Virus record (IMG/VR): IMGVR_UViG_2660238346_000023
Source: a virus
Lineage: Monodnaviria; Loebvirae; Hofneiviricota; Faserviricetes; Tubulavirales
Length of the DNA: 9,238 nt
Reading direction: 5' to 3' (one strand)
Below are positions 4,046-4,381 of the stretch, piece after piece; the stretch's first letter is position 1; each line of letters starts with the position of its first letter. Below the pieces are notes generated by a model, which was not told where the DNA came from, ran no database searches, and saw only the letters and a list, made by a program, of their open reading frames with translations. The position numbers were made by a program, and so were the translations under genes.

Positions 4046-4192
4046 TAATCCCCCCAAATGCTTTACCTGCGTGCAATTGTGCAAACTTGCAAAAATAATA
4101 CACAAAAAAACCAGATGCACAAGTGCAATTGTGCACAAATGCAATTTTGCTATGTTGTATTAAACTAAGCCAAAAGAACAGGAGAACAAAAA
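4046..4192. promoter_or_regulatory. Divergent promoter/operator region between Rep and the small regulator
   Basis: GTGCAATTGTGCA occurs at 4071..4083 and 4123..4135, with a third partial copy TGCAATT at 4140..4146 and the near-palindromes GCAAACTTGC and TGCACAAGTGCA. AT-rich. AGGAGA Shine-Dalgarno at 4180..4185 for the plus-strand gene. Confidence 0.5.
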
Positions 4193-4381
4193 ATGAGCAG
4201 GAAAAGTATTGGTATAAGCAACGAGAGATATCTGAGAATAGAAAGAGCAGCCGTAGATATCACAGCCAAAACAGGAAAAGTCACAAAATGGTCGGAGATC
4301 GTGAATTATCTGATAGATGAATATTTAAACGATGCAAAACAAGATATGATTTCGAAAAATGAAATTACACAAAAAAAATAG
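4193..4381 (+). CDS. Small DNA-binding regulator, 62 aa, probably ribbon-helix-helix; repressor-like by position
   Basis: ATG at 4193 with an AGGAGA Shine-Dalgarno. The sequence pattern fits a beta-strand followed by two helices (KSIGIS / NERYLRIERAAVDITAKTG / KWSEIVNYLIDEYLN). Transcribed divergently from Rep, as RstR is in CTXphi-type phages. Confidence 0.55.
   Translation: MSRKSIGISNERYLRIERAAVDITAKTGKVTKWSEIVNYLIDEYLNDAKQDMISKNEITQKK

Follow-up and report, generated by a model that had tools for sequence, protein, structure and literature searches.

The stretch of DNA analyzed here, the 9,238-nucleotide virus record IMGVR_UViG_2660238346_000023 (Tubulavirales; its full length is called the window), holds slightly more than one unit of a filamentous (inovirus) prophage of about 8.7 kb, and our subject is the segment that joins its replication gene, rep, to a small gene for a 62-aa protein. 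We consider it likely that this segment serves a CTXphi-like E. coli prophage as its cassette for immunity and regulation, in which a ribbon-helix-helix (RHH) repressor would act on phased boxes. The first-pass annotation had proposed a repressor/operator switch on rep, analogous to RstR of CTXphi and serving as the immunity determinant of the phage. As far as sequence comparison can tell, that proposal is supported: the small gene is real, it is homologous to genes annotated rstR, and the repeats between the two genes follow the protein.

The 62-aa gene is divergent from rep across an intergenic region of 147 bp (4046-4192), with the coordinates first assigned to it, and the Shine-Dalgarno sequence AGGAG stands 8 nt before its ATG (Table 1). 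Compared with an 86%-identical relative from an E. coli variant (L012; comparison loci carry the prefix L throughout), it shows 14 synonymous differences and a single non-synonymous one, which corresponds to a ratio of non-synonymous to synonymous rates (dN/dS) of 0.012 at a synonymous rate (dS) of 0.62. The 62-aa open reading frame (ORF) is a real gene under strong purifying selection. Close homologues of the protein, at 66-98% identity, occur in E. coli, Providencia, Photorhabdus, Sodalis, Proteus and metagenomes, with Pasteurellaceae members at 58-62%, and an exhaustive profile search of 1.8 billion proteins returned 75 cluster representatives at E<=1e-3, nearly all of about 60-80 aa. Family members are nearly all annotated 'hypothetical protein', and PHROGs places the 62-aa protein in phrog_2503, a group of unknown function. 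On the other side of the region, we assign the rep start to the GTG at 4045 because relatives with unrelated upstream DNA start at the equivalent position; PGAP makes the same call in a near-identical element (L001, described below), and a longer rep ORF from a TTG at 4144 was rejected on the same comparison.

The two exact copies of GTGCAATTGTGCA that had been noticed in the intergenic region are present, at 4071-4083 and 4123-4135 (+). The underlying unit is shorter, consisting of a TGCA tetramer and a 4-nt A/T-rich spacer that recur with a strict 8-bp period in two arrays. The right-hand array also contains the degenerate in-phase boxes TGCT at 4148 and TGTA at 4156 (the latter is TGCA in L012), and it can be read as a 16-bp unit repeated about 2.5-3 times. 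Across both arrays the spacers run ATTG, AACT, AAAA, CAAG, ATTG, CAAA and ATTT. Seven TGCA tetramers are found in the 147 nt against 0.72 expected (Poisson P ~1e-5), and the 9.2-kb window has no TGCA pair at +8 other than the 5 found there. The pattern TGCA-N4-TGCA-N4-TGCA has three matches, every one in the intergenic region, against none in 200 dinucleotide shuffles, while the autocorrelation of 4-mers gives 13 matches at each of the offsets 8 and 16 and 0-3 elsewhere (z ~9.5-10; 0/500 shuffles). The phased TGCA boxes are non-random. No box is lost in L012, where the substitutions relative to the window are confined to the spacers, despite the dS of 0.62 in the adjacent gene.

We considered whether the palindromic boxes, together with a run of T, could form a minus-strand intrinsic terminator or attenuator before rep, as a terminator scan that flags 4136-4115 (-) followed by CTGGTTTTTT might suggest. 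The corresponding hairpin, however, has a folding energy of -12.5 kcal/mol and a z score of -1.35, with 19 of 200 shuffles folding as well, and the left array, the strict 8-bp phasing and the co-variation of the boxes with the protein would all be left unexplained. Such a terminator is extremely improbable.

That co-variation emerges when the small gene is followed through other phages. It lies directly upstream of and divergent from rep in the window, L001, L002-L009, L019-L021 and L026; in L027 another called gene stands between the two. Upstream of regulators with 66-81% identity, TGCA-N4-TGCA arrays are retained, mostly in two clusters separated by about 45 bp, and each 4.5-8-kb relative locus shows the pattern nowhere else. 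L002, L004, L005, L006, L012 and L015 retain a left array with two or three boxes, and L008 has a single two-box array only. The replication protein beside these arrays is either of the GPA type, only 43% identical to that of the window (Providencia), or an unrelated Rep_trans protein (Photorhabdus, Sodalis and a metagenome). More distant members adjoin a replication protein of the Ff gII type and have 8-bp-phased boxes of their own, TGTAA in L027 (z score at offset 8, z8, of 8.2) and GCATG in L024 (z8 of 3.5). Pasteurellaceae homologues, with the ribbon sequence KNLGVP, are accompanied by TCACA/TGTGA boxes, and the CTXphi 'environmental' type (L019-L021) by GCATGC boxes. In the E. coli prophages L010 and L011 a paralogue (MKRKAIAITESTY...) goes with GTTAA boxes repeated every 8 bp (z 10.7), and L013, also an E. 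coli prophage, encodes a different 62-aa protein with CTTAGA/TCTAAG repeats (z8 4.6, and 6.3 at offset 16). Despite these other cassettes, the replication proteins of L010 and L013 are 97.6% identical to that of the window. In other words, the boxes travel with the regulator protein and not with Rep.

The edges of the exchanged segment can be located closely. Homology of the window to L013 and L010, at 98.6-99.3%, ends at 4044-4054 and restarts at 4456, and cassettes have been swapped at these sharp borders. The co-exchange of repeats and small protein around a constant Rep is the pattern expected of an immunity cassette, and the unit of protein and boxes exchanged between phages, about 410 bp long, most likely specifies distinct immunity types. 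The first-pass annotation had expected the immunity-defining differences to lie between the two units of the array. This expectation did not hold: the window contains one copy of the region, and both tandem units of L001 have identical intergenic sequence. Immunity types differ between strains.

Several observations concern the neighborhood of the cassette. A small hydrophobic ORF of 51-56 aa (4458-4628, +; probable ATG at 4473) starts where backbone homology resumes; it is also conserved in L011, the annotation of L012 includes an analogous membrane ORF of 57 aa (4079-4252), and the window ORF gave no family match. In L010, an E. coli prophage, three small regulator-type genes are stacked between rep and the backbone (3147-3972), namely the unannotated GTTAA-type paralogue at 3261-3443, a 70-aa family member at 3515-3727 and an L013-type 62-aa gene at 3784-3972; the GTTAA-type paralogue carries a frameshift in L011. 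Cargo is seen downstream of the regulator in some relatives, a TIR-domain (CAP12-PCTIR_TIR) gene in the Providencia prophages L002 and L003 (4790-5545) and a TolA C-terminal-domain protein in the E. coli variant L012 (3552-3917).

Filamentous phages usually have their origin in intergenic DNA close to rep, which gives some weight to the idea that the repeats are Rep iterons or a plus-strand origin, with the RHH protein acting as a nicking accessory for the HUH nuclease in the manner of TraY or TraM. TraM is also the best structural match of the protein, and one UniRef entry names an identical protein 'Relaxosome protein TraY'. The distribution of the repeats argues against this idea, since TGCA arrays stand beside both a 43%-identical GPA-type Rep and an unrelated Rep_trans, whereas a 97.6%-identical Rep is found with entirely different repeats. 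The CTXphi homologues, moreover, sit at rstR/ig-2, and the CTXphi origin is in ig-1. Finally, short rstR alleles repress in reporters that are free of Rep (PMC11509585). We regard an iteron or origin function as quite unlikely, and return to the repressor reading.

The relationship to RstR is one of homology, which takes the claim beyond the analogy first drawn. In a tblastn search of the phage collection the 62-aa protein matches genes annotated rstR at 43-45% identity over 82-92% of its length (E 4e-8 to 9e-8). The matched records, GQ466608, GQ466611, KR063268 and GU942563, comprise CTXphi of strains IB1617 and IB1346, pre-CTX and a further CTXphi record (GU942563), and the IB1617 and IB1346 genes bear the note 'environmental RstR; cryptic phage CTXphi transcriptional repressor'. 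The same search also matches 'RstR-like' genes of the Vibrio anguillarum phages VAI1 and VAI2, and all of these rstR and RstR-like genes are divergent from rstA. The family profile matches the near-identical P0058 at E 6e-9, and the true product at the 'environmental' rstR is probably a 64-aa protein, MEKRGDTTVRINEQRK....

The textbook RstR-ET, which we take to be a helix-turn-helix (HTH) protein of about 112 aa, represents a long allele. The window protein falls outside that class, with its 62 residues, no HTH match in Pfam and a strand-helix-helix model. Judged by this homology, it is a homologue of one RstR class, that of the short alleles, beyond a mere analogue.

The rstR alleles are either long (333-354 bp) or short (calc, 180 bp; 5, 204 bp; 6, 192 bp), and allele-specific repression has been demonstrated for the CTXphi alleles ET, class, calc, 232, 5, 6, ZJ and ZHJ (Li et al., 2024; PMC11509585). 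In lux assays (Table 2 and Table S1 of that paper) each of the calc, 5 and 6 proteins represses its own ig-2 (rstA) promoter; on ig-2-6, for instance, the value is 2.18e5 with vector and 1.94e4 with RstR-6. The primers give the termini of rstR-6 as MKKKYTSLRV... and ...NTQKTDLKR, which fit the pattern seen in the family members P0048, P0082 and P0083. Viral contigs did not contain the rstR-6 primer pattern, and the proteins retrieved with P0048 came mostly from Aeromonas and metagenomes, with a few from E. coli and Klebsiella and none from V. cholerae. In addition, the L013 cassette protein (3285-3473) begins MPTKHINDVLW, and the primer-deduced N-terminus of RstR-calc is MATKHIKDST. A tblastn search found no CTX-calc record, and the N-terminal peptide is all that joins the two. 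This resemblance suggests that E. coli and V. cholerae phages may share more than one short-repressor family.

AlphaFold2 (AF2), applied to the monomer with an alignment of 59 sequences, gives a model of the 62-aa protein with a predicted local distance difference score (pLDDT) of 95.2, in which residues 1-9 are extended and helices span 10-27 and 33-61. In the family alignment the N-terminal strand alternates polar and hydrophobic residues, and its outward-facing positions are variable. Aligned by hhalign with ParG (the sequence used was checked and is identical to 1p94), the family profile scores 80% probability and E 1.4e-5 over ParG residues 34-74, which are the whole RHH domain. The RHH-like pattern predicted at first pass is borne out by this strand-helix-helix model and by the profile alignment. 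Foldseek found nothing significant for the model in the PDB, and TraM, a relaxosome accessory RHH protein and the best structural match, has a sequence identity of just 11-15%. A profile search of PDB sequences gave weak matches only, to TTHA0139 (E 0.05) and ParG (E 0.2), and hhalign against single Arc, omega and CopG sequences was not significant, though the alignments were in register. As a prediction, the RHH fold is well supported but not proven.

Among RHH systems, the spacing of the boxes recalls MetJ, whose dimers bind tandem 8-bp met boxes with dimer-dimer cooperativity, an arrangement that Somers and Phillips reportedly described in 1992 (cited in PMC3130281). The tandem operator units here have the same 8-bp centre-to-centre spacing. 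MetJ differs in being a host regulator of about 105 aa with S-adenosylmethionine as co-repressor, and no sequence similarity to it was detected. TraM of pED208 and F-like plasmids, whose RHH domain is N-terminal, differs in its C-terminal tetramerization domain and its relaxosome role. With ParG of plasmid TP228 the family shares the RHH domain alignment and the arrangement of 4-bp boxes and 4-bp A/T spacers (O_F, parH). In the O_F operator, eight ACTC tetramers are separated regularly by AT-rich spacers of 4 bp, and dimers coat it cooperatively, one per box (PMC3130281). ParG is set apart by its partition role, by its ACTC rather than TGCA boxes and by a 30-residue flexible tail that stimulates the ATPase ParF, which has no counterpart here.

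The likeness to ParG raises the question of whether the protein is a centromere-binding protein, the arrays forming a centromere-like site that stabilizes or positions the episomal replicative form, with transcription effects secondary. The family profile does span the whole ParG RHH domain, and two arrays of tetramers with 4-bp A/T spacers are the geometry of parH and O_F (PMC3130281). Yet the 8.7-kb phage carries no gene for an ATPase of the ParA/ParF type, the protein lacks the long N-terminal tail by which ParG contacts ParF, and the arrays sit precisely in the gap between the two divergent genes and overlie predicted promoters. A centromere function therefore seems very unlikely to us, and a repressor acting on transcription is preferred.

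The predicted promoters would place the boxes in a setting suited to such a repressor. The rep promoter is the best-scoring site of the region in a relaxed position weight matrix (PWM) scan, and the scan finds a site at the same relative position in L012, L002, L005 and L006. Equivalents of the regulator promoter (-35, spacer length and -10) read ATGCAA-16-TAAACT in L012, ATGCAA-16-TAAAAT in L006, TTGTAA-16-TATAAT in L002 and ATGTGA-16-TATAAT in L005. We infer that RHH dimers would place the N-terminal beta-ribbon (residues ~3-9, RKSIGIS) in the major groove of each TGCA, whose self-complementarity would fit a two-fold-symmetric ribbon. With 8 bp from centre to centre and A/T-rich 4-nt spacers, neighboring dimers could cooperate and coat both arrays, one dimer per box. 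The right array would then cover the -35 elements of two back-to-back promoters, that of rep reading leftward and that of the regulator rightward, and the left array would cover the start of rep transcription. Because the arrays would cover both predicted -35 elements and the rep start, we suggest that rep is repressed and the repressor autoregulated; with rep off, the downstream ssb and structural genes would be off as well. Occupied boxes would thus keep the prophage quiet and prevent an incoming phage that has the same boxes from replicating, which would amount to superinfection immunity.

The protein might instead be an activator, or a bifunctional switch, that turns on rep or the rightward genes and has no role as an immunity repressor. 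RHH proteins such as AmrZ can both activate and repress (PMC3325190), and the weakness of the predicted promoters is compatible with a need for activation. The boxes, however, overlap the predicted -35, spacer and start site instead of lying upstream, and the rstR alleles, homologous and equivalent in position, act as repressors. We disfavor an activator role and hold it to be quite unlikely.

Set against the proposed repressor are several results on the promoters, the fold and the comparison with RstR. A stricter sigma-70 scan returned no site in the intergenic region, and the relaxed PWM scan returns ~4 sites per 171 nt as background, so that the promoter calls are to be read as consensus predictions. 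The LexA box CTG-N10-CAG has no match in 3900-4500, and no inducing signal is evident. Pfam assigns the 62-aa protein to no family, HTH or other, and its ParG model matches weakly, in 7 of 61 family members with a best E of 0.019, below the cut-off. The 'environmental' rstR, the demonstrable homologue, is not among the eight alleles of PMC11509585, and the whole of the evidence for rstR-6 as a family member is its primer-deduced N- and C-terminal peptides.

The closest known system is nevertheless the RstR/ig-2 region of CTXphi and pre-CTXphi with short alleles (environmental, rstR-6, rstR-calc and rstR-5), where the small gene is likewise divergent from and directly upstream of a rep of the RstA/GPA type. 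CTXphi ig-2 likewise has short phased repeats (GCATGC in L019-L021), and there, too, a hypervariable cassette lies between otherwise near-identical phages and is the basis of heteroimmunity. The window differs in its E. coli host, in its TGCA operator core and in that no LexA box was seen. Its Rep shares 31% identity with CTXphi RstA and ~30% with the fs2 and VFJ replication proteins. YpfPhi and CUS-1 are a further parallel, being likewise dif-integrated enterobacterial inoviruses, of about 8.7 kb and found in tandem arrays, with a small gene at the same position. That gene, YPO2273 of YpfPhi, has been called 'homologous to RstR', with its regulatory role said to await experimental demonstration, and transcription is believed to start from an intergenic region that separates modules transcribed in opposite directions (PMC4266046).

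Table 1. Features of the window referred to in the text
Feature	Position	Strand	Remarks
Putative ssDNA (single-stranded DNA)-binding gene	1589-2014	-	
rep	2045-4045	-	GTG start at 4045; Pfam PF05840 (Phage_GPA), E 8e-49; RstA/GPA-type rolling-circle initiator; presumed regulated target
Exchangeable cassette	4045-4455		~410 bp; operators, regulator gene and ~75 bp downstream; flanks near-identical across cassettes
Left operator array (predicted)	4072-4091		three TGCA boxes at 4072, 4080 and 4088; spacers ATTG, AACT; over predicted rep transcription start
Predicted rep promoter	4095-4122	-	-35 TTGTGC 4122-4117; 16-nt spacer; -10 TATTAT 4100-4095; start inferred near 4088
Right operator array (predicted)	4116-4159		exact TGCA at 4116, 4124, 4132 and 4140; overlies both predicted -35 elements
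Predicted regulator promoter	4139-4166	+	-35 ATGCAA 4139-4144; 16-nt spacer; -10 TAAACT 4161-4166; start predicted near 4173
Shine-Dalgarno AGGAG	4180-4184	+	read directly from the sequence
Gene for 62-aa RHH protein, short RstR-like repressor (predicted)	4193-4381	+	stop codon included; divergent from rep
Secretin/pIV gene	4781-5989	-	
Zot/pI gene	6776-7978	-	
Putative major coat gene		-	role from gene order and composition
Putative pIII gene, Gly/Ser-rich		-	role from gene order and composition

The wider prophage is shared with E. coli strain 100416 (L001), where the same element, 99% identical, is present as a head-to-tail tandem directly adjoining hipA and its Rep is annotated 'replication endonuclease'. 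The position beside hipA is the dif region, and the prophage is tandem-integrated at dif; the array terminates there at GGTGCGCATAATGTGACACGCGTTATGT. In the window, two inverted dif-like sites, 4636-4663 (+) AGTGCGCACAATGACGTTATGTATAAAA and 4700-4736 (-) AGTGCGCATAATGTGACACGCGTTATGTTGAAA, flank a GC-rich hairpin (4662-4698), an arrangement resembling a forked-hairpin attP of the CTXphi style, for integration of single-stranded DNA by XerCD. Between zot/pI and secretin/pIV there is a tandem duplication of about 339 bp (6003-6284 and 6342-6623) with nearly identical copies, and the arrangement of the copies differs in L001. Both ends of the window (86-456 and 8728-9147) contain the Gly/Ser-rich repeats of the putative pIII gene; the window wraps around the phage unit there, and the number of repeats differs between the two copies. 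A megablast search of the whole window against the phage collection found no match, and an Rfam scan of the window found no family.

If the comparisons are taken together, they can be read as describing one portable RHH immunity-repressor family of inoviruses, made up of the short CTXphi RstR alleles, the E. coli protein and at least 75 representatives. In this joint reading the family would extend over Enterobacterales, Vibrionaceae, Aeromonas, Pasteurellaceae and gut and ocean metagenomes. Its operators would consist of 4-5-bp boxes arrayed with a constant 8-bp period, as for ParG and MetJ, and specificity would reside in three outward-facing ribbon residues, with the pairings S-G-S/TGCA, A-A-T/GTTAA, N-G-P/TCACA and T-R-N/GCATGC. 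The module would hop among phages with three unrelated kinds of replication protein (GPA/RstA, Rep_trans and Ff gII), and would persist unannotated in the classical Escherichia phage If1. We put the chances of this reading, with all its parts together, at about even. In the 'major intergenic region' of If1 (L022, U02303; 1488-1679) we observe an unannotated 63-aa family homologue, 41% identical (E 1e-7), on the strand opposite to the three annotated flanking features, and no 8-bp repeats were found in the DNA upstream of it.

The kind of system is already known from RstR, and no new kind is revealed here. What the present analysis adds is the RHH assignment, the operator model of tetramer boxes at 8 bp and the portability of the cassette across unrelated replication proteins. 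To our knowledge, the short rstR alleles have received no mechanistic characterization, and the model of RHH dimers on 8-bp-phased tetramer boxes is a proposed mechanism for them. The natural pairs of protein and operator (TGCA, GTTAA, TCACA, GCATGC and TGTAA) could serve as a set for studies of beta-ribbon specificity or as orthogonal repressors. Dif-integrated filamentous prophages are present in many E. coli genomes, and the three E. coli cassette proteins, all annotated hypothetical, are found on 251, 383 and 498 contigs. Recognizing the cassette as RstR-type would tie these prophages to CTXphi, and would allow them to be typed by immunity group and their co-residence and superinfection to be predicted.

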